64,000 bases of DNA, taken from an uncultured Sphingomonas sp. Lineage in GTDB: Bacteria; Pseudomonadota; Alphaproteobacteria; Sphingomonadales; Sphingomonadaceae. The translations under genes and the position numbers were made by a program. A model generated the notes under the pieces. That model did not search any database and was not told where the DNA came from. It saw nothing but the letters and a program-made list of their open reading frames with translations. The stretch is from assembly GCF_913777625.1 (NCBI RefSeq), contig NZ_CAJYTI010000010.1:175095-239094 (forward strand). Reading direction: 5' to 3'. Shown here piece after piece: positions 6,272 to 63,642 of the stretch (the stretch's first letter is position 1; each line of letters begins with the position of its first letter).

Positions 6272-6784
6272 TCAATGGTACGATGCGGCCTCGACCGGCG
6301 TGCACAGCAGCGCGCACGGGCCTTCGCCGTCGAGCGGCAGGATGGTGGTGAGCGTCGCCAGGCCGCCGGCATGGTCGAGCAGCCAGCCCGGTTCCGCGAC
6401 GGCGGGGCGGTTGGGCGAGAAGGCGACGCCGGTGCCGTCGGTGATCACGCCCAGCCGGCGCGGCGGGCTGGGCCAGCGGCCGGCGAGATAGGTGAGGCAG
6501 GCGCTCGCCGCATCCTGCAGCGCGCCTTCGTCGGTGTCCTCGTCGCAAAAGCCCTCGGGGCTCGCGTCGATCTCGGCGACCAGGCGGAAGTCGTCGCCGC
6601 GCCACCAGATCATCCGCAGCGATCCGTCCATGTCCTGCTGCAGACCCAAAAAAAGCCGACCGCCGGCCGGGAGCAGCGGTTGCGCACAGCGCACCATTTC
6701 CTCGGCCAGTTCGGTCAGCTTGAAATTCGGCCGCGGCATCATCTGGGGTATGCCGCGGCCGTTGGTCTGGGAGTCTCGGGACAT
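6272..6784 (-). CDS. Hypothetical protein downstream of the sigma factor
   Basis: 170-aa ORF with coding-like composition and its own CTATAAT motif 30 nt upstream; no family recognised. Confidence 0.7.
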   Translation of the reverse strand: MSRDSQTNGRGIPQMMPRPNFKLTELAEEMVRCAQPLLPAGGRLFLGLQQDMDGSLRMIWWRGDDFRLVAEIDASPEGFCDEDTDEGALQDAASACLTYLAGRWPSPPRRLGVITDGTGVAFSPNRPAVAEPGWLLDHAGGLATLTTILPLDGEGPCALLCTPVEAASYH

Positions 6785-6814
6785 CGGATCGTTCCGCGAT
6801 AGGGTTACCCCTGC

Positions 6815-6823
6815 ATTATAGAA
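6815..6823 (-). promoter_or_regulatory. TYCTATAA -10-like motif
   Basis: Minus-strand TTCTATAAT upstream of the ORF starting at 6784. Confidence 0.55.
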
Positions 6824-6844
6824 CGATTGCGCAGGAAACGGATA

Positions 6845-7897
6845 TCAGTGCAGCGCGGCGCTGCTCTGCACGGCGGCAGCGACGGCCACGACCTCGACGG
6901 TATCGCGGTTCGCCTCGGCCGCCACCACCGCCTCGACGCTCGCCGGATGGATCGCGACGACGCTGGAGAGCAGGTTGTGGGGCTGGCTGGCGTCCGGCAG
7001 GATCGGGGTGACGCTGCGGGCCGGGGCCGGCTGGCGGCGCTTGGCGGTGGCGGGCTCGCCATATTCGGCCATCACCGAGAAGCGGGGGTCGGCGGCGGCG
7101 ATCTCGGCGATCACCTTGGCGGCGCGCTTGGTGATCTGGCGGACGCGCTCCTTGGTCACGCCGGTCTCGAGCGACAGATCGTCGAGCGTGGCGGTCTGGA
7201 ACACGCGGCGGGCGACGATCTCGCGGTCGCGCTCCAGCTTGGCTTCGAGCTTCTCCAATTCGGTCGGATCGATGCCGTGGGTGGCGGTGCGGAGGCGCGG
7301 GCCTTCGCGGCGCAGCGCGGCTTCTTCCCGCTTCGGACGGGGGCGGCGGCGGAGCTGCTCGATGCCCACCTTGCGGAGATGGTCGACATAGGCCTCGATC
7401 AGCGAGGAGATCGCGCCGTCGGCCAGGTAATCCGACGCGGCGCTCTCGGTACGCTCCAGGGCGTCCTCGTCCTCGATCATCGCCTCGGGCGACATCTCGT
7501 CGCCATCCGCCGAGGTGACCATCGCGCTGAGCGAAACGGTGGTGGCTTCGACCTTCTTCGCGGAGGGGCGCTGATCGGTCATCAGGCGGAAGCGCAGGCT
7601 CTGCAGTTCGCCGCGGATCTGCCAGTTCACGAAGGTGGTGAACTGCGCCTTTTCCGGCTCATAGGCCTGGATGGCACGGTGCACGGCGATGGCGCAGCAC
7701 TGCTCGGCATCGTCCCAGTGCGCGGTCAGGCCGTACTGGCGGATGAAGTGGCGGATGCGCGGTGCGATGAGCTTGAGAATGCGAGCGAAGGCCCGATCGA
7801 CTTCGGCGCGCTGACGGGCAGTCTGCTTGCTGTCCTTCGGCGAGTTCTCGATGACGGTTTGGACTGCGGCCTCGAGAGCGATCGTGATCTTCGACAT
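6845..7897 (-). CDS. Sigma70-family (group 3-like) RNA polymerase sigma factor, atypical
   Basis: Region 2 AIQAYEPEKAQFTTFVNWQIRGELQS, region 3.2-like VSLSAMV...MIED, region 4.2 HTH TLDDLSLETGVTKERVRQITKRA. Confidence 0.8.
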   Translation of the reverse strand: MSKITIALEAAVQTVIENSPKDSKQTARQRAEVDRAFARILKLIAPRIRHFIRQYGLTAHWDDAEQCCAIAVHRAIQAYEPEKAQFTTFVNWQIRGELQSLRFRLMTDQRPSAKKVEATTVSLSAMVTSADGDEMSPEAMIEDEDALERTESAASDYLADGAISSLIEAYVDHLRKVGIEQLRRRPRPKREEAALRREGPRLRTATHGIDPTELEKLEAKLERDREIVARRVFQTATLDDLSLETGVTKERVRQITKRAAKVIAEIAAADPRFSVMAEYGEPATAKRRQPAPARSVTPILPDASQPHNLLSSVVAIHPASVEAVVAAEANRDTVEVVAVAAAVQSSAALH

Positions 7898-7949
7898 TCG
7901 TATTCCCCTGGTTCAGCGCCGGTCCGATCGTTCCGGCGCCGTCGACAGG

Positions 7950-8091
7950 GGCAGATTTCGCCTGAAACCTTTAAAGGAGTGCTAATCGCGGGCTTAGGTA
8001 GTTTTCCGCAAAGGACCCCCGACCTTTATAGCAGTTGCGATTCGCAACGTGGGCCAAGTGCCTGAAAAAATGATGGTTAATCGCCGTTCAG
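7950..8091 (-). promoter_or_regulatory. Sigma-factor promoter region: ftr-like box (7950-7962), TGCTATAAA (8025-8033), CtrA-like half-match (8076-8091)
   Basis: GGCAGATTTCGCC; minus-strand CTATAAA; minus-strand CTGA-N7-TTAAC. Confidence 0.45.
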
Positions 8092-8133
8092 CATGTGCGC
8101 TAACGACGCTTCTCGCGGCCGGAAATGGCGGAT

Positions 8134-9168
8134 TTACGAGGAAAATTTTTCCGGTTGGATGTGCCGGTCGATGAATTGCAGTAACCATTCCCGATGGGCA
8201 CGGGTGGCGTCGCCGGCACTGGCGATGCGCTGTTCTGCAGCCGATCCGCCGATCTGGGCGGCGAGCAACTGGCGGGCACGGCCCGCGTCAATCCCGCCGG
8301 CGAGAAATTTTCGCGCATCGCCCAGCCCCAAATGGTGGCTGAGATAGGCGGCCTTGGCCAAGGTTTCCGAGTCGGCGCGCACGTTGAGCCCGGATGATTC
8401 GAGCTTATGCAAATTGTTGCGGGCCATATCTGCGACGGTGAGAATCGACGCCTGCGGATCGTAGCGCAACGCCAGCAACTCGCTGCGCCGGCTGGGATCG
8501 ACCTTGCCGTTCTCCTTCAGCCAGCCGCGCGCCTTGGCGACGTCGTTCAGCCAGGTGCCGCTCTGTTCGGCGAGTCCCTGCCAGGTGCCGCTGAGGAACT
8601 GGCCCAGCCCCGCCGCGCTCGAGCGCGGGTTGCGGGAGAGCGGGTTCCAGCTGCCGTCATGGCCCTTGCCGGCTTCGGCGTTGACGATTGCGGCGAGCGC
8701 ATTGGCAGGCACGCCGCTCCGTGCCTCGGCCGCCGCCAGCGCATCGGCGTAGCGGCTGTTGGCGCCGAGCGCGAGCGCACCGGAGGTGCCGCCGGCGGCG
8801 ACCCCGGACGCAGGGGCGGAGGCCATGGCGGCCGGCGGCGCCGCGATTGCCCGGGCGCGCTCGGCCGTCAACGGCGCCTTGGGCGCGACGGCTGCGTCCT
8901 GGGCGTCGTCGTGACATGAACAGGCGCATTGGCAGTTGCAGCGGCCCTTGGACGAACGCGGCGCCTGGGTGCCGAGCAGTTCGAGCAACGAGTCCATCTG
9001 CATGTCCGAACCCGGGCCGAGCGGCGAGCGGGTCTTGCCCGCTTCGCGGTCGCCGTCGCCGAGCGCGGCGCGCCAAAGCCGGGTCGAGAGCTCGGACTGC
9101 GCCTGGGCGTAGATCACGTTGGCGCGCTGGGCCGGCGTGAGCGCGGCGAGGTCGGTACGGTGGATCAT
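8134..9168 (-). CDS. Lytic transglycosylase (SLT-like), probable flagellar peptidoglycan hydrolase, with a Cys-rich linker
   Basis: AAIVNAEAG (catalytic Glu), SSAAGLGQFLSGTW, YLSHHLG; ATGA overlap with the fliJ-like gene. Confidence 0.8.
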   Translation of the reverse strand: MIHRTDLAALTPAQRANVIYAQAQSELSTRLWRAALGDGDREAGKTRSPLGPGSDMQMDSLLELLGTQAPRSSKGRCNCQCACSCHDDAQDAAVAPKAPLTAERARAIAAPPAAMASAPASGVAAGGTSGALALGANSRYADALAAAEARSGVPANALAAIVNAEAGKGHDGSWNPLSRNPRSSAAGLGQFLSGTWQGLAEQSGTWLNDVAKARGWLKENGKVDPSRRSELLALRYDPQASILTVADMARNNLHKLESSGLNVRADSETLAKAAYLSHHLGLGDARKFLAGGIDAGRARQLLAAQIGGSAAEQRIASAGDATRAHREWLLQFIDRHIQPEKFSS

Positions 9169-9596
9169 GCAGCCTTCACCGGCATCCGCTTGCGCTCGCG
9201 CAGGAAGCGCGCCGCGGCAATGTCATCAATCGCCGCCTGTTCGGCGGCTTCGGCCTCGCGCTCGGCATCGGCGCGGAAGCGCTCGGCGGCGCTTTCGATC
9301 GCGCGCAGCGTGCCAAAGGCCTCGCGCGCCTGTTCGCGCAGCTGCAGCAGGCGGTCCTGTTCGGCCGCGACTTCCTGGCCGAGCCGGGTCTGGGCGTGCT
9401 TGGCCGTGGCCAGCCAGGCGTCCGAGGCAAAGGGCAGCGCGTGGGCGAGCATCCGCTCCTCGCGCATCCGCTCGACGAGCGTGCGGGCCTGCTGCTCCAT
9501 CTCGGCGATGCGCTCGATCGAGGCGCCGATCGCGACCTTGAGGTCGTCGACGCTACGCTGCTGCATCCGCAGTGCGGTGTCGAGCGGCGTCCTCAT
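9165..9596 (-). CDS. fliJ: FliJ-like flagellar export chaperone
   Basis: 143-aa coiled-coil protein immediately downstream of fliI. Confidence 0.65.
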
Positions 9597-10954
9597 GCGG
9601 CGAGACCCACGTCATGGCCCGGCTCGCCCGCGGCGGCACCGGAGAGGATCGCGGCGAGTTCGGCGAACGCCGCCTCGGCATGGCCCTGGTCGTTCTTGCC
9701 CTGGTTGAGCAGCGCCTCGATCCGCGGCGCGAGCGCCACGGCGCGGTCGACCTCGGGTGAAGATCCCGCCTTGTAGGCGCCCAGCCGCACCATCTCTTCC
9801 ATGTCGGCATAGGTCGACAGGAGCTTGCGCGCCGCGATGCGGACGTCGTTCTGCTCTGGCTCCAGGCAATGGGGCAGGGTCCGCGACACGGACTTGAGCA
9901 CGTCGATCGCGGGGTAGCGGCCGCGCTCGGCGATCGCGCGGCGCATCACGACGTGGCCGTCGAGGATGCCGCGCACCGCGTCGGCGACCGGCTCGTTATG
10001 ATCGTCGCCGTCGACGAGGACGGTGAACAGGCCGGTGATCATGCCCTGGCCGGGGGCGCCGGGGCCGGCGCGCTCCAGCAGGCGCGGCAGCTCGGCGAAG
10101 ACCGTGGGAGTATAGCCCTTGGTCGCAGGCGGCTCGCCCGAGGCAAGGCCGATCTCGCGCTGCGCCATCGCGAAGCGGGTGACCGAGTCCATCAGGCAGA
10201 GCACGTTGAGGCCCTGGTCGCGGAAATGCTCGGCGACGGCCAAGGTCGTCCAGGCGGCCTGGCGGCGCATCAGCGCGGGTTCGTCCGAGGTGGCGACGAC
10301 GACGACCGAGCGGGCCATGCCTTCGGGCCCCAGATCGTCCTCGATGAATTCCTGCACTTCGCGGCCGCGTTCGCCGATCAGGCCGATCACTGCGACGTCG
10401 CACTGTGTCCAGCGCGCGAGCATCGACAGCAGGACCGACTTGCCCACGCCCGAACCCGCGAACAGGCCGAGCCGCTGGCCGCGGCAGAGCGGCACGAAGG
10501 TATCGAGGCAGCGCACCCCGGTCTCGATCCGCTCCGCCACGCGGGCGCGGCCGGCAGCGGCGGGGGGCGAGGCCTTGATCGGCTGCGGGTCGGCGCCGTT
10601 GGCGAGCGGACCCTGTCCGTCGACCGGCCGGCCGAGACCGTTGATCATGCGCCCGAGCCATGCCTTGGAAGGGCGCACGGTGAACTGGCCCGCGCCCAGC
10701 TCGGCGATCGCGCCCAGGCCGACGCCCTGCGGATCGACGAAGGGCAGGCACAGCGCCACGCCGCGATCGAGCGCGGTGACTTCGGCTTCCACCTTGCCCG
10801 AGGGCGACTGGATTTCGACGCGGCTGCCGATCTGGGCAACGCCGGTCAGCCCTTCGACTTCGATCAGCGCGCCGCGCACCGCCACCACGCGCCCGAAGCG
10901 GCGATCCGGAACCATCTCCCGGATTGCACGTGCGGCACTGGCGAGCGTTTGCAT
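9593..10954 (-). CDS. fliI: Flagellar export ATPase
   Basis: [45 protein letters not shown]; start ATG 10954, downstream of the flbT stop. Confidence 0.95.
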
Positions 10955-10968
10955 CGCGGCGGCGTCCT

Positions 10969-11373
10969 TCAGGCGGCCTGGGTGGCGCTCTGGTCGGCGG
11001 TGGCGGCGTCTTCCAGCGCGATCACCTCGCGAGCGGCGGCGAGCGCCTTGTAATATTCGCCCTGGGCGAGTTCGTTGGCGAAGCGGATGCACAGCTCGCT
11101 CGCCTGCGGCGTGCCGAGCGTGGTGATCACCAGGCTGATCAGCTGGACGATGGCATCCTGATGCGCGCTGCGGCCTGCCGGATCGATATAGGCCAGCATG
11201 GTCGCGAAATAGAGCTGGCGGGCAGGCGTGGTCGCTTCCTCGGGCCGCATCACTTCGCGACCGCGCAGGATCGATACCATATTCTCTACGGCAATCTGGG
11301 TACGACCGACGGCGCGCAACACGGCGCCGTTGACGATCGCTTTTTCACCGTCGCGGAGCGTGATGCGAAGCAT
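10969..11373 (-). CDS. flbT: Flagellar biosynthesis regulator FlbT
   Basis: [18 protein letters not shown]...[12 protein letters not shown]...[12 protein letters not shown]. Confidence 0.9.
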
Positions 11374-11403
11374 GGCACTGGCCTTTCGATAAGCGTTCCT
11401 AAA

Positions 11404-11519
11404 CTTATAGCGACGTTTGCAGCGCGCGGTGCGAATACCCGGCAAATTTTGCCGCCTCCCGTGCGCGGACAGGCAATTTCGCCCTATCGATTTGGGCCGG
11501 CCCGCCACCCCTCTACAAT
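11404..11519. promoter_or_regulatory. Divergent flbT/flgE control region with two ftr-like palindromes and two -10-like motifs
   Basis: Minus CTATAAG 11404-11410; GGCAAATTTTGCC 11441-11453; GGCAATTTCGCCC 11472-11484; plus CTACAAT 11513-11519. Confidence 0.6.
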
Positions 11520-11570
11520 AAAGACGTCGCCGGCGTGGGGATCGCGCGGGCATCTCGAGGAGTTTTGAAC

Positions 11571-15025: not shown

Positions 15026-15934
15026 ATGTCCCGCGTAGCCACCGTTCCGCTCCAGCGCACCATGGCCCAGGCCATTTCGACCGCGCAGGAAAAGCTGGCG
15101 ATCACCCAGCAGCAGCTCTCCACCGGCAAGAAGGCGTCCGATTTCGCCTCGCTGGGCACCGAGGCCGTGCGCAACCTTTCGGCGCACAGCCTGCTCGAGC
15201 AGCAAAAGGCACAGTCGGCAGTGGCGTCGCGGGTCGGCACCACCATGTCGCTCTATCAAGGCCATATCGAAGGGATCGAGAAATCCGCGACCGATCTTCG
15301 CCAGCAGATCATGACGGCGATCGGCACGGGCCAGAGCTCGGGCCTGCAAGAGGCCATCGCAAGCTCGTTCGACCAGGTCCGCGCATCGCTCAATGCCAGC
15401 GAGGGCGGCGTGCCGCTGTTCGCCGGATCGCAGACGGACCAGCAGCCCTTTTCGGTGACGTCGCTGGCCGACGCCGCGACGACGACGGCGGCCGATGCGT
15501 TCCACGACGATAACAAGCTGGCCAGCGCGCGGGTCGGCGACGGTGTCGATGTGACCTATGGCATCAACGCCAGCTCGATCGGCAAGAACCTCTACGAGGC
15601 GTTCCGTACGCTCGCCCAAGCGGGCCCGATCGGCACCACCATCACCGCTGCGCAGAAAACCGCACTGCAGCAGGCCGTGTCGCAGCTGAACGGCGGCCTG
15701 AACGACGTCAGTACCGTCAATGCCGATAACGGCCGCAAGCAGAACCAGGTCGAGGACCTGACCCAGCGCGGCCAGGATCGCTCGCTGCTGCTGCAGAAGG
15801 TGATCGAGGACAATGAAGACGCCGATCTGGGCCAGGTCGCGCTCGATCTGTCGCAGCAGCAGACGGTGCTGCAGGCCAGCTATTCCGTGTTCTCGCAGCT
15901 CAGCGGTCTCAGCCTCGTCAAGTATCTGTCCTGA
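15026..15934 (+). CDS. flgL: Hook-associated protein 3
   Basis: Flagellin-like termini (QQLSTGKK; PLFAGS; EDADLGQVALDL) following flgK. Confidence 0.9.
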   Translation: MSRVATVPLQRTMAQAISTAQEKLAITQQQLSTGKKASDFASLGTEAVRNLSAHSLLEQQKAQSAVASRVGTTMSLYQGHIEGIEKSATDLRQQIMTAIGTGQSSGLQEAIASSFDQVRASLNASEGGVPLFAGSQTDQQPFSVTSLADAATTTAADAFHDDNKLASARVGDGVDVTYGINASSIGKNLYEAFRTLAQAGPIGTTITAAQKTALQQAVSQLNGGLNDVSTVNADNGRKQNQVEDLTQRGQDRSLLLQKVIEDNEDADLGQVALDLSQQQTVLQASYSVFSQLSGLSLVKYLS

Positions 15935-16031
15935 TCGACTGGATTTATCATGCGGGTGGCGCAGGCTGTAAGGTCTGCGTCATCTCCGCCGCGTAGCATC
16001 CGCACCGAACGAATATTCGGGAGGCTGGGGG

Positions 16032-24701: not shown

Positions 24702-24710
24702 TTTATAGGA
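24702..24710 (-). promoter_or_regulatory. TYCTATAA -10-like motif
   Basis: Minus-strand TCCTATAAA 28 nt upstream of ATG 24673. Confidence 0.5.
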
Positions 24711-27841: not shown

Positions 27842-27897
27842 AGCTTCCCTGGACCTTCCGAAATATCGGCCGCGACGTCCGCACGTCCGATTTCCCT

Positions 27898-27930
27898 CTA
27901 TTATAGAACCGTCACCCGGCAATTTCTGCC
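27898..27930. promoter_or_regulatory. Divergent fliL/flgF control region: palindromic CTATTATAG plus ftr-like box
   Basis: CTATTATAG 27898-27906; GGCAATTTCTGCC 27918-27930. Confidence 0.6.
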
Positions 27931-30757: not shown

Positions 30758-30841
30758 TTTACCGAAACTTTACCTTAATCATCCGGTAACCATCAAAATT
30801 TTCAGGAGAAATTTTGATGGAGGCGATTTTCTTCCCACAAT
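30758..30841 (+). promoter_or_regulatory. Flagellin upstream region: tandem CtrA-like boxes, 12-bp inverted repeat, -10-like motif
   Basis: TTTA-N7-TTTA 30758-30772; TTAA-N7-GTAAC 30775-30790; CCATCAAAATTT-N7-AAATTTTGATGG 30790-30820; CCACAAT 30835-30841. Confidence 0.5.
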
Positions 30842-30931: not shown

Positions 30932-31786
30932 ATGGCTTTTTCCGTTAACACCAACGTCGGCGCGATGGCGGCTCTGCAGAGCCTGAGCCAGACGCAGAAG
31001 GACCTGTCGACCACCCAGAGCCGCATCAACACCGGTCTCGCGGTTTCGTCGACCAAGGATGACTCGGCGACCTACACGATCGCCCAGGGCCTTCGCAGCG
31101 ATCTGGGCGGCCTCAAGTCGGTTTCTTCGTCGCTCAGCCGCGCCAAGAGCGTGACCGACGTCGCGGTTGCCGGTGCCGAGCAGATCTCCGACATCGTCAA
31201 CCAGATGAAGGCGAAGGCCTATCAGGCTGCTGACGCCGGCCAGACCACGGACAGCCGTACCCAGCTGAACAACGACTTCACCGCGCTGCGTGACCAGATC
31301 ACCACGATCGTGAACTCGGCCAACTTCAACGGCACCAACCTGCTGAAGAGCGGCGGCGGCACCGTGACGGCCCTGCAGTCGCTGCAGGACTCGAACACCG
31401 CGACCACGGCCTGGAACCCGGACTCGCTCTCGGTTGCCAACCAGGCGCTGGACCTCGGCGGCTCGAACATCACGATCGCCTCGACCGCGACGATCAGCAC
31501 CCAGGCTTCGGCCCAGGCGATGATCGACACGATCACCACCACGCAGAGCAACCTGACGGCGGTTCTGGGCAAGCTCGGCGCGGCTTCGCGCAAGATCGAC
31601 GCCCAGCAGGCGTTTACCAGCAAGCTCTCGGACGTGATCGACAGCGGCATCGGCAACCTCGTCGACGCCGATCTGGCGAAGGAATCGGCGAAGCTGCAGG
31701 CGCTGCAGGTCAAGCAGCAGCTCGGTGTGCAGGCTCTGTCGATCGCCAACCAGGCGCCGCAGACCATCACGTCGCTGTTCCGCTAA
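30932..31786 (+). CDS. fliC: Flagellin (short, Caulobacter Flj-like)
   Basis: SVNTNVGAMAALQSL, RINTGLAVSSTKDD, FNGTNLL, LVDADLAKESAKLQALQVKQQLG...LFR. Confidence 0.97.
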   Translation: MAFSVNTNVGAMAALQSLSQTQKDLSTTQSRINTGLAVSSTKDDSATYTIAQGLRSDLGGLKSVSSSLSRAKSVTDVAVAGAEQISDIVNQMKAKAYQAADAGQTTDSRTQLNNDFTALRDQITTIVNSANFNGTNLLKSGGGTVTALQSLQDSNTATTAWNPDSLSVANQALDLGGSNITIASTATISTQASAQAMIDTITTTQSNLTAVLGKLGAASRKIDAQQAFTSKLSDVIDSGIGNLVDADLAKESAKLQALQVKQQLGVQALSIANQAPQTITSLFR

Positions 31787-35031: not shown

Positions 35032-35040
35032 ATTATAGAG
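35032..35040 (-). promoter_or_regulatory. TYCTATAA -10-like motif
   Basis: Minus-strand CTCTATAAT 44 nt upstream of the fliK ATG. Confidence 0.55.
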
Positions 35041-37172: not shown

Positions 37173-38507
37173 TCAAGGGGCGGGCGAGACGGCGATGCCC
37201 GCCTCGATGAAGGTGCGCAGCTTGTTGCGCATCGTGCGCACCGAGATGCCGAGGATGTTCGATGCCGAGGTGCGGTTGCCGTGGCAGCGCTCGAGCGTCT
37301 GGAGGATCAGCTCGCGCTCCACCTCTTCCACCGTGCGGCCGACCAGGCTGTTGATGTCGAGCGCGTTCGCATCGGCATTGAGGTCGGCAAGCGGGGTGCC
37401 GTCGGCACGCACCAGGTCGCCCGGCGTGATCGCGGCGCCGCGGCCGAGCAGGATGGCGCGATGCACCGTCTCGTCCAGTTCGCGGATGTTGCCCGGCCAG
37501 CTGTAGCGCTGGAGCAGCGCCAGTGCCTCGTCGGTGAAGGCGCGCTCGGGCACGCCGTCGACTTCGGCATGGCGCTTGGCGAAATAGCGGGCGAGGGCGA
37601 GGATGTCCTCGCCGCGGGCGCGGAGCGGCGGCACCTCGACGCGGACCAGCCCCAGCCGGACCAGCAGATCGGCGCGGAACGAACCGCTGTCGACCAGCGC
37701 GTCGAGGTTCAGGCTCGATGTCGCGATCAGCCGCGCATGGAACGGGATCAGCTCGTTGCCCGCCAGGCGGCGGAACTGCTGCTTCTGGAGCACGTCGTGC
37801 AGTTTGGCCTGGAGCGCGGGCGACAGCATGCCCACTTCGCGGATCAGCACGGTGCCATGGCCGGCCTTTTCGAGCCGACCGATGCGGCGGGCGACCGCGC
37901 CCGGAAAGGCGCCGGCCTCATGGCCGAACAGCTCGGATTCGAGCACGTCGGGGGCAACCCCGGCGCATTCGGCGACCAGCATCGGCTGCGGACGGCCCGA
38001 GGCATCGTGCACGGCACGCGCCATCATTTCCTTGCCGCTGCCCTTCTCGCCGGTGATCAGCACCGGCGCGCTGCTGGGGGCGACGCCCGCGGCAAGCGAG
38101 AGCGCGCGGGCGAGGGCGGGGTGAACGCCGATCCAGGCCGGGGCCTTGCGCTCGACGACCGAGGCAATGGCCGCCGCGATCAGTTCGCGTTGCGGCGGAA
38201 GCGGTACGTAATCGCGGGCGCCGGCGCGGATCGCCGCAACCGCGCGCTCGGCCGGGGCATCGATGCCGCAGGCCAGCACCGCGATGGTGAAGCGTTCGCT
38301 GCGGATGCTCGCCATGAAGCCGGCGATGTCCGCCTCGACGTCGATCATCACCAGATCTGCGCCGCCCTGGCGCAGCTGGATCAGGCCGTCGGCCGGCGTG
38401 TCGGCCATCGCCACTTCGGCGCCGGCGCTGCGCGCCAGCTCGGCGGCGAGGCGGAACTCGCTGCCCGGCGCACCGATCAGGAGCATGCGTATGGAGCTGG
38501 CCATCAA
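37173..38507 (-). CDS. flbD: FlbD-like enhancer-binding protein (REC-AAA+-HTH) with degenerate sigma54-activation motifs
   Basis: FlbD-like receiver (VLACGIDA...YVPLPP), Walker A GEKGSGKE, GAFPGA instead of GAFTGA, Walker B VLIRE, intact HTH GNRTSASNILGISVRTMRNKL; fliN-flbD-flhA synteny. Confidence 0.88.
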   Translation of the reverse strand: MMASSIRMLLIGAPGSEFRLAAELARSAGAEVAMADTPADGLIQLRQGGADLVMIDVEADIAGFMASIRSERFTIAVLACGIDAPAERAVAAIRAGARDYVPLPPQRELIAAAIASVVERKAPAWIGVHPALARALSLAAGVAPSSAPVLITGEKGSGKEMMARAVHDASGRPQPMLVAECAGVAPDVLESELFGHEAGAFPGAVARRIGRLEKAGHGTVLIREVGMLSPALQAKLHDVLQKQQFRRLAGNELIPFHARLIATSSLNLDALVDSGSFRADLLVRLGLVRVEVPPLRARGEDILALARYFAKRHAEVDGVPERAFTDEALALLQRYSWPGNIRELDETVHRAILLGRGAAITPGDLVRADGTPLADLNADANALDINSLVGRTVEEVERELILQTLERCHGNRTSASNILGISVRTMRNKLRTFIEAGIAVSPAP

Positions 38508-40538: not shown

Positions 40539-40590
40539 TTTATAGAAAGGGGGCGGAGCGGCAGTTTCTGCCGGGTGGGAATTTTTTGCC
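40539..40590 (-). promoter_or_regulatory. fliF promoter region: TTCTATAAA plus two ftr-like boxes
   Basis: Minus CTATAAA 40539-40545; GGCAGTTTCTGCC 40560-40572; GGAATTTTTTGCC 40578-40590. Confidence 0.6.
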
Positions 40591-46167: not shown

Positions 46168-46213
46168 CCCTGCAGAAAATGGTCCGCGCGCACCCGCAAG
46201 GCCGCGCTCTCCT

Positions 46214-46270
46214 CTATTATAGGATTGTTAGGGGAAGGGACGGATCGGATCATGGTTAATTATTCTTCAA
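46214..46270. promoter_or_regulatory. Divergent fliG/flaY control region: palindromic CTATTATAG plus CtrA-like box
   Basis: CTATTATAG 46214-46222; minus TTGA-N7-TTAAC 46255-46270. Confidence 0.55.
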
Positions 46271-49035
46271 ACCTAATCGGACTGAGTTTGTTGACCGGAC
46301 AGAATGCGTTCACGTCCGCGAACACCACCCCCGTCACGTTCGAGAGCAAAGCGGTGCGCACCGCGAAGGCGCAGTTCACGCTCGATCCGACCACCCCGCC
46401 CTGGAAGGACCCGGCGACCACGACTTCCGCGTCGTCGCAGCTGATTTCGATCCTCGCCGCACGCACCGTCGTCAACCAGCCGACCACGGACAGTGCCGGC
46501 AATCTGCTGCCGGACGACGTGAAGACCACGTTCACGTCGTACAAGGCGCTCGATCAGCTGCGTGTGCTGGCCGAGGCAGCGACCAACACCACGACCTCCG
46601 ATGCGCAGCGGGCGCAGTATCAGAAGGCCTTTTCGAAGGGGCTTGCCGATCTGCAGAAGTATCTGGCGACGGCGCCGTCGAACCAGGTGGACCTGGCGTT
46701 CGGCAAGCCGAGCACGACCGCGACGACAAGCCAGCTCCAGTCGGCAAGCCAGTATGAAACCCATGGCGCGCCGCTCGTCGCCAAGGGGGACGATCCGCTG
46801 CCGGGGCTTACCGGCAACGAGCAGTTCCAGATCACGCTCACCCGGCCCGGTCTCACGCAGAACTTCACCGTCGATCTGTCGCAAGGGCCGCAGCCGCCCA
46901 CGCTGGCGTCCGTTTCCGACGCATTGAACGCGCAGATCAAGTCGCAGCTCATCTACAACGATGACGGGACGGTGCGCACGGACGCCAAGGGCGATCCGGT
47001 CTCGCGCTGGTCGGCGCGGTTCCAGCCGGAATATGTCAACGGCAAATGGGGCCTGAAGCTCAGTACGCCGGACGGACTTGAACAGGTGAGTCTCAATCAG
47101 GTTGGCGCGAAGGATTCGCTGGTCGTCACCACCGGTCAGACCGCGCTTGATGCGCCGACCGCGACGCAGGTGTTCCGCCTCAACGATCCCGACGGCACCA
47201 GCAGCAGCGTGTCGATGGGCACGATCCAGGCGCTGGACCGCCAGGCGACCGCACAGAATGTCGCCGCCAACAAGACCACCACCGTCACCACCACGACCGT
47301 CGACATGGACGGCAAGGTCAAGACGAACAAGACGACGACCAGCAACGTCTATGCCAGCACCGATGCCGCCGCGGTGACGACGGACGGGCAGGGCTTCAGC
47401 TATGTCGTCGGCACCACCAAGGGCGACCTGGGCGCCAACCTCTCCGACGGCGACAACAATCTGTTCCTCACCAAGATGGACAGCACCGGGAAGGTGGTGT
47501 GGCAGCGCAACCTTGGCGCCGCCGGTGCCGCGACCGGGGCGGCGGTGTCGATCGCACCCGATGGCGGGATCGTCGTGGCCGGGACGGTGTCCGGCAATTT
47601 CAACGGCATCACCGCCGATGGCGACATGGTCGTCGCGAAATATGCGGCAAATGGCGACGAGCAATATTCGACCGTGGTCAGCTCGATCGGCACCGACAAG
47701 GCGCAGGCGATGACGATCGGCGCCGACGGATCCGTGTTCGTTGCCGGTCGAGCCGCCAACAAGGATGGCGGCGACGCGATGGTCGCGCGCATCGACCCGA
47801 ACGGCAAGTTTGCCGAGCGTCGCAGGATCGACAGCGGCGGCAGCGATACGATCAGCGGCCTCGCGGTCGACAAGGACGGCAACCTGCTTGCCCTCGTCTC
47901 GCAGAACGGGGCGTCCAGCGTAATGAAGATGCAGGCGGACTCGCTGTCGACCGATCTCGGCAGCATCAGCCTGGGCAGTGCCGATGCGCGCGCAATCGCG
48001 GTGGCCAGCGATGGCAGCATCGCGATCGGCGGCGCCACGGACAGTTCCATCCCCGGCGCCCAGGTAAACGGGACGAGCGGCGGCCGCGACGGCTTCGTCA
48101 CCCGGATCGATGCCGGCTTCACCTCCGCCAGCACCACCTATATCGGCACCAGCGCGGACGACCAGGTCGACAGCCTCGCCTTCATGAACGGCAAGCTCTA
48201 TGTCGGTGGCCGTACCACCGGTGATCTGGGCGCGACCAAGCGCGGCGCGGTGGACGGCTTTGTCAGCCGGCTCGACGCCGCGACCGGCACGATCGAGAGC
48301 ACCAATCAGTTTGGCCAGGCACTGCTGCGGACCGAGCCGGTGCGGGTGGCGGCGGACAGCGGTGGCGATACCGCAATCTCGGCACTCGGCTTCGGTCGCG
48401 GCACGATCAACCCTACCGTGTCGGACAAGGTGACGACGCAGACCACGCTGCGTCCCGGCGACTATTTCTCGATCAAGGCCGACGACTATGCCGTCCGCAA
48501 GGTGACGATCGAGAAGGGCGATACACTCAAGACGATCGCCGACCGAATCCAGGGCATGATCGGCGCCTCCAAGGGCACCGTGACGGCCACGTCCGTGAAT
48601 GGCGTCCAGTCGCTGCGGATCACGATGAAGGCGGGCCACGAACTCGAACTGCTTTCCGGCCAGGATGGCAGCGATGCGCTGTCCAAGCTCGGCATCGAGC
48701 CGCAGCGCATTTCCGCGGCGGCGACCGTGTCTGCTTCGGCTCCGAAGGTTCGGCCGGGCGGCAATTATGGCATGGATCTCTCCGACGCGCTGAGCCTGAC
48801 CTCGCTGGACAGTGCCAAGGTCGCGCTGGGCAAGATCAAAGATGCCATCTCGATGACCCAGACCGCCTATCGCTCTCTATATTGGGATGACAACAAGGCG
48901 ACGCTGGTCGACGGTACCAAGACCAATACCAAGACCGGCACCTCCTCGACCGCGGTCGAGCAGGCGCAGCTGAAAAATTACCAGGCGGCGCTGTCCCGGC
49001 TTTCGGGCGGCATCCCCGCCGGCACGGGGTTCTGA
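46252..49035 (+). CDS. flaY: FlaY/FlaEY-like beta-propeller flagellar protein (927 aa)
   Basis: Helical N-terminus, repeated DxxGxxYVxGxTxGxL propeller blades, flagellin-like C-terminal helices, end KNYQAALSRLSGG; no Sec signal; lies within the flagellar cluster. Call made from recall. Confidence 0.6.
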   Translation: MVNYSSNLIGLSLLTGQNAFTSANTTPVTFESKAVRTAKAQFTLDPTTPPWKDPATTTSASSQLISILAARTVVNQPTTDSAGNLLPDDVKTTFTSYKALDQLRVLAEAATNTTTSDAQRAQYQKAFSKGLADLQKYLATAPSNQVDLAFGKPSTTATTSQLQSASQYETHGAPLVAKGDDPLPGLTGNEQFQITLTRPGLTQNFTVDLSQGPQPPTLASVSDALNAQIKSQLIYNDDGTVRTDAKGDPVSRWSARFQPEYVNGKWGLKLSTPDGLEQVSLNQVGAKDSLVVTTGQTALDAPTATQVFRLNDPDGTSSSVSMGTIQALDRQATAQNVAANKTTTVTTTTVDMDGKVKTNKTTTSNVYASTDAAAVTTDGQGFSYVVGTTKGDLGANLSDGDNNLFLTKMDSTGKVVWQRNLGAAGAATGAAVSIAPDGGIVVAGTVSGNFNGITADGDMVVAKYAANGDEQYSTVVSSIGTDKAQAMTIGADGSVFVAGRAANKDGGDAMVARIDPNGKFAERRRIDSGGSDTISGLAVDKDGNLLALVSQNGASSVMKMQADSLSTDLGSISLGSADARAIAVASDGSIAIGGATDSSIPGAQVNGTSGGRDGFVTRIDAGFTSASTTYIGTSADDQVDSLAFMNGKLYVGGRTTGDLGATKRGAVDGFVSRLDAATGTIESTNQFGQALLRTEPVRVAADSGGDTAISALGFGRGTINPTVSDKVTTQTTLRPGDYFSIKADDYAVRKVTIEKGDTLKTIADRIQGMIGASKGTVTATSVNGVQSLRITMKAGHELELLSGQDGSDALSKLGIEPQRISAAATVSASAPKVRPGGNYGMDLSDALSLTSLDSAKVALGKIKDAISMTQTAYRSLYWDDNKATLVDGTKTNTKTGTSSTAVEQAQLKNYQAALSRLSGGIPAGTGF

Positions 49036-52441: not shown

Positions 52442-52450
52442 CTTATAGGA
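52442..52450 (-). promoter_or_regulatory. TYCTATAA -10-like motif
   Basis: Minus-strand TCCTATAAG 38 nt upstream of the flgI ATG. Confidence 0.55.
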
Positions 52451-52487: not shown

Positions 52488-52904
52488 GTGCGTATCGACA
52501 GCCTGTCACCGATCATGGCACGCAACCTGCTGGCGGCGCTGCCCAAATCGATGTCGGGCGCGGTTGTTTCGACCCAGGAAGCGGGCACGCAGCCGCAGCA
52601 GCCGCTCGCGGTGCCCGGCGCGGTTCCGGCTACCAGCGTACAAGCGCTGATCGCGATCGCGGTCAACAATCCGATCGCCGAGCGGCGCCGCAAGCAGGCG
52701 CGTGATGCCGAGCGGGGGATCGACGCGCTTGATCGCCTGCACAAGGAACTGGTGGCAGGCACCCCCAATGTCGCGCGGCTCCGCGAAATCGCGCAATGGT
52801 CGCAGGCGGTACCGACGCCTGAAGAGCCGACGCTGGCCCAGTTGATACGCGACATCGACCTGCGGGTGCGCGTCGAACTCGCCAAGCTGGACATCCAGGT
52901 CTAA
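52488..52904 (+). CDS. fliX: Flagellar assembly regulator FliX
   Basis: ERRRKQ...GIDALDRLHKELVAG...LIRDIDLRVRVELAKL; divergent from flgI as in Caulobacter. Confidence 0.8.
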   Translation: MRIDSLSPIMARNLLAALPKSMSGAVVSTQEAGTQPQQPLAVPGAVPATSVQALIAIAVNNPIAERRRKQARDAERGIDALDRLHKELVAGTPNVARLREIAQWSQAVPTPEEPTLAQLIRDIDLRVRVELAKLDIQV

Positions 52905-54766: not shown

Positions 54767-54775
54767 ATTATAGGA
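54767..54775 (-). promoter_or_regulatory. TYCTATAA -10-like motif
   Basis: Minus-strand TCCTATAAT 44 nt upstream of the PilZ gene start. Confidence 0.55.
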
Positions 54776-57372: not shown

Positions 57373-57374
57373 TG

Positions 57375-58421: not shown

Positions 58422-59305
58422 GCCCTGGACTCCGGCTTTTGGTAAATAGTGTGCCCGCACGAGCGCATCTTGCTCGCCGCGGGGCCGATCAGCCGTTCCG
58501 AATGACCGATATAGAGGAAACTCCCCGGGGCGAGCTGCTCGACGAAGCGATGCTCCAGCTCTTCCTTCGCGGGATCCCCGAAATAGATCATGACGTTACG
58601 GCAGAAAATCACATCATAGGCGGCTTTCAGCGGCCACGGTTCAAACAGGTTGAGTACCTTTGCGGTGACCAGCTGGCGCGCCTCGTCGGCCATGATGAAG
58701 CCACCTTGCGTGGGCTTCATCCAGCTCGAGCGATACGGTTCCGGCACGCCCGCTGCGACGTTCTCGGCATAGACGCCCCGCTGCACGGATTCGACCACAT
58801 GCGGCGCGATGTCCGTTGCCAGCAGTCGCACGTCGGCGTTGCGCAACCACGATGCATGGCTGCGGTTCGGCCCGAGCAGGCACATCGCGATCGTGTAGAC
58901 TTCTTCCCCCGACGAGCAGCCTGCCGACCAGATCCGGATCGGCCCCTGCTTGCGCTGGAGCGTGGGGATCACGGTCTCGCGGAAATGGTCGAAATGGTGC
59001 GGCTCGCGGAAGAAATGCGTGTGGTTGGTGGTCAGCGCCACCACCATCGCATGGCGTTCCTCGGCATCGTTGTGCACCAGGTCGACATAATCGCAGAACC
59101 GGGTGAGACCGAACTTGCGCAGCCGGCGAGCGAGACGCGACTGGACGAGCGTCGTCTTCGCCTCGCTGAGCGAGATACGCGCATCCTGGTACATGATCGC
59201 GGCAATGGCCTGGAAGTCGCGCGGCGTGAGATCCGCCGTCTGACCCGGGGCCATCGCGGTCGCGGCGCCGGCGGACGCCGCGCTGGCGCCCCCGGCGGCG
59301 CTCAT
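58418..59305 (-). CDS. cheR: Chemotaxis methyltransferase
   Basis: TTNHTHFFRE, IWSAGCSSGEEVY, ATDI, DVIFCRNVMIYF. Confidence 0.96.
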   Translation of the reverse strand: MSAAGGASAASAGAATAMAPGQTADLTPRDFQAIAAIMYQDARISLSEAKTTLVQSRLARRLRKFGLTRFCDYVDLVHNDAEERHAMVVALTTNHTHFFREPHHFDHFRETVIPTLQRKQGPIRIWSAGCSSGEEVYTIAMCLLGPNRSHASWLRNADVRLLATDIAPHVVESVQRGVYAENVAAGVPEPYRSSWMKPTQGGFIMADEARQLVTAKVLNLFEPWPLKAAYDVIFCRNVMIYFGDPAKEELEHRFVEQLAPGSFLYIGHSERLIGPAASKMRSCGHTIYQKPESRA

Positions 59306-59796
59306 GCGGCCAGATCCAGATGCTTGGTAAGGCTCAGCGCGTTCAGGTCGAGCAGCAGCACCATGCTGCCATTCTCGTCCCGCGTGCCGTCCTTGGCGCG
59401 GGTTGCGATGCGGACGAGGCCCGCGATCACGCTTTCCTCAAGCGCCGTCTCCACCGCGGGCGCCGGCTGGATCTCGTTGACGTTGATGCCGACGATGTCG
59501 TTCACCTCGTCCACCAGGAAGCCCGCCTGCTTGCCCATGATGTTGACGACCAGGATGCACGAGCGGGCGTGCAGCTGGCTCGGCTCCCAGCCCAGCCGCT
59601 CGGCCAGGCCGACCACCGGGATCACGTTGCCGCGCAGGTTGGTCACGCCCTTGATGAAGCTGGGCACGTTGGGAAGCGGCGTCGGCTCGTCCCATTCGCG
59701 GATTTCGATGAGCGCGCTCATGTCGATCCCGAAAATCTGCTTGGCGAGCGAGAAGGTAACGATCTTACGATCATTGGCGGTGTCGGGGGTGCTCAT
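59302..59796 (-). CDS. cheW: Chemotaxis coupling protein
   Basis: TPLPNVPSFIKGVTNLRGNVIPV, GFLVDEV. Confidence 0.95.
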   Translation of the reverse strand: MSTPDTANDRKIVTFSLAKQIFGIDMSALIEIREWDEPTPLPNVPSFIKGVTNLRGNVIPVVGLAERLGWEPSQLHARSCILVVNIMGKQAGFLVDEVNDIVGINVNEIQPAPAVETALEESVIAGLVRIATRAKDGTRDENGSMVLLLDLNALSLTKHLDLAA

Positions 59797-62066: not shown

Positions 62067-62428
62067 GGGCAGACGCGGCGGATCGCCGCCCCCAGCTTGG
62101 TGGCCTCGAACGGCTTGGTGATCCAGCCGGTGGCACCGGCGGAGCGGGCGCGCTGCTTCTTCTCGTCCGAGAATTCGGTCGAGAGCACGAGGATCGGCAC
62201 GCCCTTGAACTCAGGCACCTGGCGTACTGCCTCGATCAGCTCGAACCCGTCCATCTTCGGCATGTTGATGTCGGTGATGAGCAGGTCGGGCTTGACCTCG
62301 TGCATGCGCTCCAGGCCATGCTGACCATCGTTCGCGCTTTCGATGCGAAAGCCCTGCGCGGTCAGCGACGTCTTGAGCAGCATGCGCATGCTCGCGGAGT
62401 CATCGACGGTAAGGATCAGCTTGGTCAC
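62063..62428 (-). CDS. cheY: Chemotaxis response regulator (CheY1-like)
   Basis: LTVDDS, ITDINMPKMDG, LVLSTE, GATGWITKPF. Confidence 0.93.
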   Translation of the reverse strand: MTKLILTVDDSASMRMLLKTSLTAQGFRIESANDGQHGLERMHEVKPDLLITDINMPKMDGFELIEAVRQVPEFKGVPILVLSTEFSDEKKQRARSAGATGWITKPFEATKLGAAIRRVCP

Positions 62429-62739
62429 AGAAGGTCTCCGGTATCAATGCCGACCGCCGCTGCGAGCTGGCAACGGTTCACACGATCGGTGAAGGCAGTG
62501 CTGGGGTTGAGGATGGTGAAGGCCTTGCCGAGCTTTTCGGCTTCCGCCTTGGCTGCGACGAGCAACTGGAGGACCGCCTGGCCAACGCTTTCGACCTGCG
62601 AGGCATCCACCTCGACCGGGCCGTCGCCGTCGACCGCCTGGATCAGGCGGGTCTGAAGATCCGCGGCCGTCACGGTCGAACCGTGCGCGGGGAGCGCGAC
62701 AGCGCCCTCGGCCTCAAGCGGTTGCAGGGGAATTTCCAT
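62425..62739 (-). CDS. STAS-domain chemotaxis protein (CheS / Caulobacter CheX-like)
   Basis: VEVDASQVESVGQAVLQLLVAA STAS pattern directly before cheY1-cheA. Confidence 0.8.
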   Translation of the reverse strand: MEIPLQPLEAEGAVALPAHGSTVTAADLQTRLIQAVDGDGPVEVDASQVESVGQAVLQLLVAAKAEAEKLGKAFTILNPSTAFTDRVNRCQLAAAVGIDTGDLL

Positions 62740-63598
62740 TCTTGGCCTCGTCGAGAGCGGATTCGAGTTGCTGGAAGGTCGGCGCGTACGCGGAAGGCGT
62801 CATGCGACGGGCGATCTCGATCGCGACCTGCACCGGCTGGTTCTGGGCGTAGGCGACGATCGCGGTCTTGATGATGGTGAAGGGCTTGGAGTCGCCCTCG
62901 ATGGTCTCCAGCAGCTTGGTGGCGAGCGGCGCGACCACGCAGTAGGAGAGCAGCACGCCCATGAAGGTACCGACCAGCGCGCCGCCGATCATCGCGCCGA
63001 GGATTTCGGTCGGCTGATCGATCGAGCCCATGGTCTTGATGACGCCGAGCACCGCGGCGACGATGCCGATGGCGGGAAGGCCGTCGGCCATCAGCTGCAG
63101 GGCGTGCTGCGGATGGGTTTCTTCATGGTGGTGCTTCTCGATGTCCGCTTCCATCGCTGCTTCCAGCTGGTGCGGATCCTCGAAGTTCACCGTCATCATC
63201 CGCAGATAGTCGCAGAGAAACTCGATCAGATGGTGATCGGCGAGCAGCCGCGGATAGGGCTTGAAGATGTCGCTTTCCTCGGGCTTGTCGAGGTGCGGTT
63301 CGATGCCGGTCGCGCCGCTCTTCTTGAACAGCGAGAGCAGGGTGAACATCAGCGTCAGCAGGTCGGTATAGTCGCTGGCCTTCCAGCGGCCGCCCTTGAA
63401 CGCGCGCATCAGGCCGGCGCCGGCCTTCTTCACCGTCGGCATCGAATTGCCGACGATGAAGGCGCCGATCGCGGCGCCGCCGATGGCCATCAGCTCGTGC
63501 GGCAGCGCCTCGGCAATAATCCCGAACTTGCCGCCCGACATGATGAAACTGCCGAACACGCAACCGAGAATGATGACGAAACCAACGGCGTTCAGCAT
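62714..63598 (-). CDS. motA: Stator protein MotA
   Basis: PHELMAIGGAAIG, ADGLPAIGIVAAVLGVI, GGALVGTFMG. Confidence 0.96.
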   Translation of the reverse strand: MLNAVGFVIILGCVFGSFIMSGGKFGIIAEALPHELMAIGGAAIGAFIVGNSMPTVKKAGAGLMRAFKGGRWKASDYTDLLTLMFTLLSLFKKSGATGIEPHLDKPEESDIFKPYPRLLADHHLIEFLCDYLRMMTVNFEDPHQLEAAMEADIEKHHHEETHPQHALQLMADGLPAIGIVAAVLGVIKTMGSIDQPTEILGAMIGGALVGTFMGVLLSYCVVAPLATKLLETIEGDSKPFTIIKTAIVAYAQNQPVQVAIEIARRMTPSAYAPTFQQLESALDEAKNGNSPATA

Positions 63599-63633
63599 GA
63601 CGAGCCTAAATTCTTTCCCTGGATGTTTCCAGA

Positions 63634-63642
63634 ATTATAGGA
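63634..63642 (-). promoter_or_regulatory. TYCTATAA -10-like motif
   Basis: Minus-strand TCCTATAAT 35 nt upstream of the motA ATG. Confidence 0.55.

Follow-up and report, generated by a model that had tools for sequence, protein, structure and literature searches.

Which sigma factor transcribes the flagellar genes of a Sphingomonas whose motility cluster resembles that of Caulobacter? We addressed this question in a stretch of 64,000 nucleotides (nt) from an uncultured Sphingomonas sp. (contig C10:175095-239094; assembly size 4.17 Mb). This stretch, which we call the window, is an alpha-type flagellar and chemotaxis cluster with a few unrelated genes interspersed (GC3 gene calling, Pfam and NCBIfam). 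In Caulobacter, class III and class IV flagellar genes need sigma-54 and FlbD acting at ftr elements, and FlbD is there the textbook sigma-54 activator. The FlbD of the window is degenerate, its operons share the promoter element TCCTAnAAT, and the cluster encodes a divergent protein of the sigma-70 family (hereafter the sigma gene and its product, P0002). We propose that Caulobacter-type control by sigma-54 and FlbD was replaced in a clade of Sphingomonadaceae; taken whole, with a new sigma factor in the leading role, this explanation seems to us about evenly balanced between right and wrong.

A degenerate FlbD and its distribution

The flbD gene keeps its place in the order fliF-fliN-flbD-flhA and encodes an enhancer-binding protein (EBP).

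37173-38507, minus strand: FlbD-like EBP (P0001), matching Sigma54_activat (PF00158, 153.6 bits) and HTH_8 (53.6 bits)

The first-pass annotation had described this protein as an FlbD with broken GAFTGA and Walker B motifs and an intact helix-turn-helix (HTH), a description that holds. The GAFTGA position reads GAFPGA (residues 199-204, nt 37896-37913) and Walker B reads TVLIREV, with an arginine for the aspartate of hhhhDE (nt 37833-37850). Both Walker A (GEKGSGKE) and the Fis-type HTH have remained intact. By these motifs, FlbD is a protein that has lost the sigma-54-contact threonine and the Walker B aspartate but kept Walker A and the HTH. Its PF00158 score is the lowest among the full-length EBPs of the genome, and its best NCBIfam match, to the FlbD model NF050807, reaches 460 bits, below the cut-off of 750.

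The same changes recur in FlbD orthologues from genomes with the sigma gene: GAFTGA is degenerate and the Walker B aspartate is replaced by arginine in all 31 sequences read. In 24 Sphingomonas orthologues, 66-98% identical, we found (G/D/N)AFPGA with LLREVG or FLREVG throughout. Seven more distant genomes that carry the sigma gene show hhhR[E/D/N] at Walker B throughout, and their loop varies: GAFAGA in S. echinoides and Ant H11, GAFPGA in an Erythrobacteraceae metagenome-assembled genome (MAG), GAFASA in Novosphingobium kalidii, GAFDGA in Sphingosinicella terrae, GAFEGA in a metagenome chromosome and GAIDGV in Leaf20. Such drift of the threonine position among P, A, D and E, in a protein otherwise kept, is the pattern expected once contact with sigma-54 no longer mattered.

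We then placed these sequences among 151 genomes of the same GTDB order. FliX occurs in 102 of them and an FlbD match at E ≤ 1e-90 in 91, while the sigma gene occurs in five. Loop 1 and the Walker B segment were read in the 30 best FlbD loci of this survey. All 28 FlbDs from genomes without the sigma gene have G(A/S)FTGA with LLLDE(I/V) or LFLDEI, including that of G080, a relative from the same family as the window; the two from genomes with the sigma gene have GAFPGA with (V/I)L(I/L)REVG. The co-occurrence check proposed in the first-pass annotation thus favours its inference: every FlbD read from a genome with the sigma gene is degenerate, and the 28 read from genomes without it are intact. 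In a maximum-likelihood tree, the degenerate proteins form one clade (100/100 support), sister to the intact FlbDs and separated from them by a branch of about 2.2 substitutions per site. This clade coincides with the presence of the sigma gene and of the new promoter type described below.

Absence of sigma-54 promoters

If FlbD no longer engages sigma-54, the promoters should show it. We scanned the window for -24/-12 sites, requiring GG-N10-GC and at least 9 of 12 consensus matches, and found none upstream of flgE, flgF, flgI, flgB, fliK or fliC. The first-pass annotation had reported no sigma-54 promoter before flgE, flgF, flgI and fliC, and the scan is indeed empty there. One site elsewhere matches at 11 of 12 positions (TGGCACGCAACCTGCT, 52516-52531, plus strand). 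It encodes MARNLLA in the fliX frame, about 0.4 such sites are expected per window, and we set it aside as probably a chance match.

G080, which lacks the sigma gene, offers the comparison. It has sigma-54 sites about 90 nt before flgI (TGGCACGAGCCTCGCA), before flgB (GGGCACGTCGGTTGCA) and before fliK-flgD-flgE (TGGCCCACAGCTTGCA), and its fliF carries the ftr CGGCAAAATTTGCCG, a sequence found identically in the window. Judged by these promoters, G080 displays the ancestral state of the regulon. The ftr sequence common to both suggests that FlbD retained its DNA specificity through the change of its output domain and target promoters.

A regulon still dependent on sigma-54, through non-canonical promoters or through another EBP that replaces or partners FlbD, must be considered since the genome carries rpoN and about seven other EBPs. 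Against this, no flagellar operon is preceded by a GG-N10-GC site of the kind obvious in the relative without the sigma gene, the ftr palindromes have a GG-to-GC spacing of 10 rather than 12, and the GAFTGA threonine has drifted across lineages as if no longer under selection. We regard continued dependence on sigma-54 as very improbable. The earlier suggestion that this dependence was lost is strongly supported by the comparison of the FlbD clade, the 28 intact FlbDs and the G080 promoters, and the regulon is very likely sigma-54-independent.

A promoter element shared by the flagellar operons

The operons are preceded instead by copies of TYCTATAA, or of close variants.

6815-6823, minus strand: TTCTATAAT, -10-like element upstream of orf170
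11511-11519, plus strand: CTCTACAAT, one mismatch, upstream of flgE (true start TTG at about 11577)
24702-24710, minus strand: TCCTATAAA, upstream of a 72-residue open reading frame (ORF) and a 607-residue exported protein
27896-27908: back-to-back pair, TTCTATAAT (minus) for fliL and CTCTATTAT (plus) for flgF
35032-35040, minus strand: CTCTATAAT, one mismatch, upstream of fliK
40539-40547, minus strand: TTCTATAAA, upstream of fliF
46212-46224: back-to-back pair, TCCTATAAT (minus) for fliG and CTCTATTAT (plus) for the 46252-flgB operon
52442-52450, minus strand: TCCTATAAG, upstream of flgI
54767-54775, minus strand: TCCTATAAT, upstream of the PilZ gene
63634-63642, minus strand: TCCTATAAT, upstream of motA-STAS-cheY-cheA-cheW-cheR-cheB-cheY-cheD-...-motB

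The first-pass annotation had counted 11 TYCTATAA motifs upstream of transcription units. Their position stands, but the exact copies number eight, all on the minus strand, compared with 0.10 expected (0 of 100 shuffles). When TYCTATAAT is allowed up to one mismatch, there are nine matches against 1.8 expected. Each exact copy precedes, by 29-59 nt, a start codon in the same orientation, and together they serve orf170, the 72-residue ORF with the 607-residue exported protein, fliL, fliF, fliG, flgI, the PilZ gene and motA. Variants in promoter position occur at the sigma gene (TGCTATAAA) and at flbT (CGCTATAAG). Exact copies number only 30 in the whole genome, and contig C10 carries eleven of these, ten of which lie inside the flagellar cluster or just past it; further copies stand before two methyl-accepting chemotaxis protein (chemoreceptor) genes, a fliN-like gene, and glycosyltransferase-like and haloacid dehalogenase (HAD)-like genes with ftr-like palindromes.

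To define the element, we used footprinting of the flgE, fliF, fliK and orf170 promoters from about 100 loci of Sphingomonas, Novosphingobium, Stakelama, Sphingosinicella and the Erythrobacteraceae MAG. Removal of sequences more than 80% identical left 88 promoters, 52 of them from flgE, with the consensus C-N-TCC-TA(t/c)AAT-g. The most frequent hexamers are TATAAT (31) and TACAAT (21), followed by TATAAA, TATCAT, TATAAG, TAAAAA, TAGAAT and TATGAT. The final base is T in 67 of the 88, and the preceding triplet is TCC in 63, CTC in 13 and TTC in nine. No position around -35 carries information in this set; a weak CCG some 17-19 nt upstream in the window promoters had been a candidate for a shared -35 element, and it vanishes among the 88. 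The distance from element to start codon is fixed within each orthologous set (about 65 nt for flgE, 38 for orf170 and 44 for fliF). Fixed T-12, A-11, A-8 and T-7 together with free third and fourth positions point to a -10 hexamer of the sigma-70 type rather than to a transcription-factor site.

This bears on a reading in which TCCTATAA is bound by a transcription factor, the sigma-like protein being a passenger or having its role elsewhere. Such a reading would account for the palindromic core CCTATAGG, for the TATAGGA copies, both inverted and direct, that precede the sigma gene in many lineages and for the back-to-back copies at two divergent junctions. It is harder to reconcile with the orientation of the motif, which is co-directional with the gene in every operon and lies 30-95 nt before the start codon, or with hexamers (TATAAT, TACAAT, TATCAT, TATGAT, TAGAAT) that keep T-A....A-T and vary at positions 3 and 4, a signature of sigma -10 elements. 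Moreover, each back-to-back copy faces a real operon. We consider a transcription-factor site improbable. The palindrome TyCTATAATAGAG can be described as a back-to-back arrangement of two -10-like elements, each directed at one operon of the divergent pair.

A divergent sigma-like protein and its partner gene

The candidate reader of a -10 element of this type lies in the same cluster.

6845-7897, minus strand: divergent sigma-70-family protein P0002, 350 residues, candidate flagellar sigma factor
6272-6784, minus strand: orf170, directly downstream of the sigma gene
8025-8080, minus strand: promoter region of the sigma gene, with a CtrA-type box TTAACCAT (8073-8080) and, 39 nt away, TGCTATAAA (8025-8033)

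P0002 had been called an atypical group-3 sigma factor at the cluster edge. Membership of the sigma-70 family is supported by Sigma70_r4 (PF04545, 28.9 bits, above the cut-off of 24.1), but the assignment to group 3 is not shown, and, instead of merely lying at the edge, the gene follows flbT-fliI-fliJ-orf344. It does so in 38 of 42 loci; a few genomes (L045, L050 and L056) have a second copy elsewhere. The segment GVTKERVRQITKRAAK aligns with region 4.2 of RpoS, and the invariant QFTTFVNWQ.RGELQ aligns with RpoS RFSTYATWWIRQ (region 2.3/2.4). Across 25 orthologues, the near-invariant LKLIAPRIRHFIRQYGL.AHWDDAEQCCAI.VHRAI..Y.P.KAQFTTFVNWQ.RGELQSLRFR.MTDQR spans regions 2.1-2.4, and region 4.2 is less conserved.

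An AlphaFold2 model of P0002 (predicted local distance difference test score, pLDDT, 69) was compared with the PDB by Foldseek. The top 15 matches are full-length chains of group-1 sigmaA (E 4e-4 to 5e-3; probability 0.89-1.0, and at least 0.96 in 14 of 15). The domains are arranged differently, which makes for low TM-scores, and structures of extracytoplasmic function (ECF) factors, WhiG and sigma-28 match more weakly. The predicted fold is thus of the sigma2-(sigma3)-sigma4 type. The FliA/WhiG model TIGR02479 is not among the NCBIfam matches of P0002, which are all below threshold. An exhaustive HMMER search of 1.84e9 representative proteins returned 194 relatives at E ≤ 1e-3, and on this count and these matches the family is a small divergent lineage outside the large ECF, FliA and RpoH families. 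In three distant relatives (P0092, P0095 and P0123; 26-31% identity, about 500-580 residues), a membrane segment is predicted, and the C terminus forms a conserved domain of SPOR-like appearance on inspection by eye. These proteins seem to represent a membrane-anchored offshoot of this small lineage. The distant paralogues of the g6 genomes L166 and L167 lie in genomes in which we found no flagellar genes and next to which we found no motif, and they are uninformative.

In most lineages, homologues of orf170, 160-175 residues long and as little as 25% identical, lie immediately 3' of the sigma gene. The gene also follows the non-flagellar sigma paralogue of L045, where it is again driven by TCCTATAAT. 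Its promoters hold the best-conserved copy of the motif, with a strong TCCTATAAT about 38 nt before the start in all those footprinted. The AlphaFold2 model of the protein is of high confidence (pLDDT 85, predicted TM-score 0.80) and has no fold match in the PDB at E ≤ 0.001. A gene that travels with a sigma factor and with its candidate cognate promoter has the classic layout of a sigma factor with an anti-sigma or feedback partner; as a lead only, orf170 may encode a new protein of this kind.

In the promoter of the sigma gene, TTAACCAT is the CtrA 8-mer sequence, of which the genome has 24 copies, and it is conserved in the closest lineages. Sigma-gene promoters of other lineages have RpoD-like TATAGG elements. 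Several lineages have a forward TCCTAT(T/A)AA upstream of the sigma gene, to which Novosphingobium adds an ftr. The promoters of the presumptive early genes of the window are likewise RpoD-like: the sigma gene and flbT have GCTATAA, and fliX has TTATAGG.

Which sigma factor reads the element

We can discard FliA as reader of the motif: in a search of the whole genome with TIGR02479, no FliA/WhiG protein was found, only RpoD-like (107 bits) and RpoH-like (72 bits) matches under the cut-off of 189.6. This leaves P0002 and RpoD as the main candidates, and the housekeeping promoters of the same genome help to choose between them. The 35 tRNA promoters identified there can be summarised as TTGnnn-N16/17-(C)TAnnnG, or more fully as TTGAC-N17-CTAnnGG. 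At position -7, G occurs in 28, C in seven and T in none, and none has the TY prefix. The flagellar promoters are of another form and thus a separate promoter class in this host.

In the RpoD alternative, the coupling to sigma-54 was lost, but it is RpoD that reads TCCTAnAAT, as a strong extended -10 element without -35, with activation and repression by CtrA and FlbD. The sigma gene would then have a narrower role, e.g. at orf170 only or at a subset of late genes. The element does share the CTA core of alphaproteobacterial RpoD promoters and contains the canonical TATAAT, and several flgE promoters have TTGGGC about 17 nt upstream, which resembles an RpoD -35 element. Class II flagellar promoters of Caulobacter depend on CtrA and RpoD. 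There is also precedent for the changed role of FlbD, since NtrC proteins without GAFTGA operate with sigma-70 (10.1101/2023.06.06.543975). On the other side, the 35 tRNA promoters uniformly have TTGnnn at -35 and lack both a T at -7 and the TY prefix, while the flagellar ones share no -35 element. The promoters of sigma, flbT and fliX differ from the rest (GCTATAA/TTATAGG), as if these alone depended on RpoD. Finally, RpoD as reader leaves unexplained why a sigma-partner module is conserved inside the cluster and why the motif is always present at orf170. We find this alternative rather unlikely.

Other points weigh against the proposed replacement as a whole. The Sigma70_r2 match of P0002 (PF04542, 19.7 bits) falls under the cut-off of 24. 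Some copies of TYCTATAA precede genes without a role in motility. The promoter statistics are partly circular, since CTA..A anchored the alignments; the conservation of position is independent of this anchoring. The co-occurrence of sigma gene, degenerate FlbD and motif amounts to a single phylogenetic event, and an association with one ancestral origin cannot separate cause from coincidence. Nor did we find a genome with the cluster that lacks rpoN, which is present in all 21 checked (20 with the sigma gene or related, plus that of the window).

The proposal that the new sigma reads TYCTATAA therefore fares less clearly than the loss of sigma-54: the difference from housekeeping promoters and the constant presence of the motif at orf170 make it plausible, and the RpoD alternative and the single origin temper it. 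The distinct promoter class, the conserved embedded module, the orf170 motif, the lack of FliA and the RpoD-like promoters of early genes incline us slightly towards the cluster sigma as the reader of TCCTAnAAT, with RpoD as the main alternative. The gene rpsF had been considered as an RpoD counter-example. It has TTCTATAAT about 205 nt upstream, by the start of the divergent fabD, and a typical CTTGCC-N17-TAAGG promoter nearer to the gene; the case is ambiguous and was not used.

ftr-like palindromes and the role of FlbD

What, then, would a degenerate FlbD do? The ftr-like palindromes of the first-pass annotation are real features of the window: GGCA-N5-TGCC with an A/T-rich centre occurs at six places (nine strand matches against about one expected). 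These are flbT/flgE, fliL/flgF, fliF (two) and the sigma leader, the sixth being a probable chance match. The consensus is cGGCAA-N3-TTGCCg, with 10 nt from GG to GC compared with 12 in a -24/-12 promoter. By their sequence, these sites are retained putative FlbD binding sites.

11441-11453: ftr-like GGCAAATTTTGCC between flbT and flgE, with an imperfect second copy at 11472-11483
27918-27930: ftr-like site between fliL and flgF, centred at about -32 for fliL and downstream of the flgF -10 element
40560-40590: two ftr-like sites upstream of fliF, centred at about -34 and -52

At flgE, six footprinted promoters of other species have a single ftr whose edge is exactly 28 nt from the -10 hexamer (centre about -47); in the window, the imperfect copy lies 30 nt before the hexamer. 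The pair at fliF is kept in nine non-redundant fliF promoters. Sites upstream of the core promoter fit activation and sites overlapping it fit repression, and in Caulobacter FlbD has such a dual role as activator and repressor. The conserved HTH, the ftr sequence identical to that of the sigma-54-type relative and the 28-nt spacing from ftr to -10 at flgE elsewhere back the earlier view that FlbD was kept as a DNA-binding regulator, and it probably acts both as activator and as repressor. The leader of the sigma gene contains the ftr-like GGCGAAATCTGCC (7950-7962, minus strand), and in Novosphingobium a perfect ftr precedes the sigma gene; this suggests that FlbD feeds back on the sigma gene.

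The flagellin gene has an upstream region of its own.

30775-30841, plus strand: fliC upstream region, with a CtrA-like TTAATCATCCGGTAACCAT (30775-30793), a palindrome (30792-30818) and TCCCACAAT (30833-30841)
30932-31786, plus strand: flagellin, 284 residues

Here TCCCACAAT lies about 95 nt before the ATG, and Novosphingobium flagellin genes have TCCTAGAAT at 73-95 nt. The 27-bp palindrome ATCAAAATTTTCAGGAGAAATTTTGAT, between the CtrA-like box and the putative fliC -10 element, is not an ftr; a role as operator, or as leader element for control by FlbT, is conceivable.

A possible regulatory scheme and its relation to known systems

These elements can be ordered in a tentative scheme. CtrA with RpoD would switch on the sigma gene through the conserved TTAACCAT box 39 nt upstream of its -10 element. 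The new sigma would then guide RNA polymerase to the TCCTAnAAT promoters of the structural, motor, chemotaxis and receptor genes and of orf170. FlbD, coupled to assembly via FliX, would work as an ordinary DNA-binding regulator independent of ATP hydrolysis, activating from sites centred at about -47 (flgE) and repressing from sites that overlap the promoter at about -33 (fliF, fliL), a dual action that mirrors its role in Caulobacter. FlbT would retain its post-transcriptional control of flagellin. In its strongest form, the proposal is that a new sigma lineage, with a partner of unmatched fold, took over the whole flagellar and chemotaxis regulon from sigma-54 by means of a -35-less extended -10 element, C-N-TCC-TAnAAT, and that FlbD survives as an ATPase-dead activator and repressor that reports assembly via FliX. 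We hold this form to be a real possibility that falls a little short of even.

The closest known system is the hierarchy of Caulobacter crescentus, from CtrA through FlbD/FliX with sigma-54 to FlbT/FlaF. The window shares with it flbT, fliX and flbD in fliF..fliN-flbD-flhA, a short flagellin, ftr palindromes (some of which overlap the fliF/fliL core promoters), CtrA-type boxes and the lack of FliA. It differs by an FlbD without the GAFTGA threonine and the Walker B aspartate, by the lack of -24/-12 promoters, by TCCTAnAAT at all operons, by the added sigma-70-family gene with its partner and by a divergent FliX (69 bits compared with 100-138).

The comparison with FliA (sigma-28) and FlgM is of another kind. 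There too an alternative sigma factor is encoded in the flagellar cluster, and orf170, like flgM, is an adjacent small gene with the same promoter type. The 8-mer TCCTATAA also resembles, at six of eight positions, what we take to be the sigma-28 -10 element (GCCGATAA). Yet the FliA_WhiG model misses P0002, the promoters lack a TAAA -35 element and span early and late genes, and orf170 has no similarity to FlgM and a fold unmatched in the PDB.

Bacterial EBPs without GAFTGA that act at sigma-70 promoters have been described, namely NtrC of Rhodobacter capsulatus and of Caulobacter, NtrX, and VpsR of V. cholerae (10.1101/2023.06.06.543975). As in these, the fold of an AAA+ sigma-54 activator and DNA binding would be kept and the contact loop lost. 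The case of the window differs in that it concerns FlbD, arises by point substitutions instead of a loop deletion, also destroys Walker B and comes with a wholesale replacement of the target promoters.

Work on motility in Sphingomonas assumes the sigma-54/FlbD hierarchy of Caulobacter (PMC8921679), and our literature search found no paper that describes a P0002-type sigma factor, an FlbD without GAFTGA or the motif. Should the assumption prove wrong, studies of transcriptomes and of CtrA in gellan-producing, welan-producing and plant-associated Sphingomonas will need re-reading. If the proposed replacement is true, it would provide a clean natural case of sigma-factor exchange across a whole regulon, with the EBP and DNA sites kept; it would make the evolution of bacterial EBPs into ordinary transcription factors directly testable, and it would introduce a new lineage of sigma factors together with a defined promoter candidate and a protein that may be its partner or anti-sigma factor.

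Other genes of the cluster and of the regulon

The sigma gene belongs to a block with several flagellar genes, and two further regulators have Pfam matches.

6272-11373, minus strand: orf170, sigma-like gene, orf344, fliJ, fliI, flbT
10969-11373, minus strand: FlbT (PF07378, 119 bits), heading flbT-fliI-fliJ-orf344(-sigma)
52470/52488-52904, plus strand: FliX (PF10768, 69 bits)

The sigma-like protein is 96% identical to the copy of S. elodea, near which the host lies, together with S. trueperi and S. azotifigens. FliX is the partner of FlbD in Caulobacter, and its PF10768 score of 69 bits in the window compares with 100-138 bits in relatives without the sigma gene. The other motility units are flgE-flgK-flgL; a motE-like gene, fliM and fliL; flgF-flgG-flgA-flgH; flgD-fliK-flhA-flbD-fliN-fliF; fliH-fliG; a 927-residue ORF followed by flgB; flgI and fliX; the PilZ gene; and motA-STAS-cheY-cheA-cheW-cheR-cheB-cheY-cheD-...-motB. 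By Pfam, the flagellar genes comprise fliF/G/H/I/J/K/L/M/N, flgB/D/E/F/G/H/I/K/L, flhA and motA-che-motB. Pfam also bears out most of the Caulobacter-like set named in the first-pass annotation (flbT, fliX, flbD and a short flagellin). Its 'flaY-like' gene could not be verified, the 927-residue ORF (46252-49035) having no flagellin domain in domain scans.

Between fliJ and the sigma gene, orf344 (8134-9168, minus strand) has no Pfam or NCBIfam match; to the eye, the C-terminal half of its product resembles a transglycosylase, and the product includes the cysteine run CNCQCACSCH. In G080 (L162, about 15680-15960), a small DUF1153/SciP-like ORF lies between flgE and fliF, as in Caulobacter, and we did not notice its equivalent in the window. 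Outside the cluster, C5:78874 (plus) and C26:11004 (minus) mark two paralogous proteins of about 400 residues with a weak match to glycosyltransferase family 4 (GT4), each with an ftr palindrome about 30 nt upstream of a TYCTATAA element. Both GT4-like paralogues and the FkbH-/HAD-like genes at C16:52455 and C10:241249 are candidate flagellin-modification genes of the regulon.

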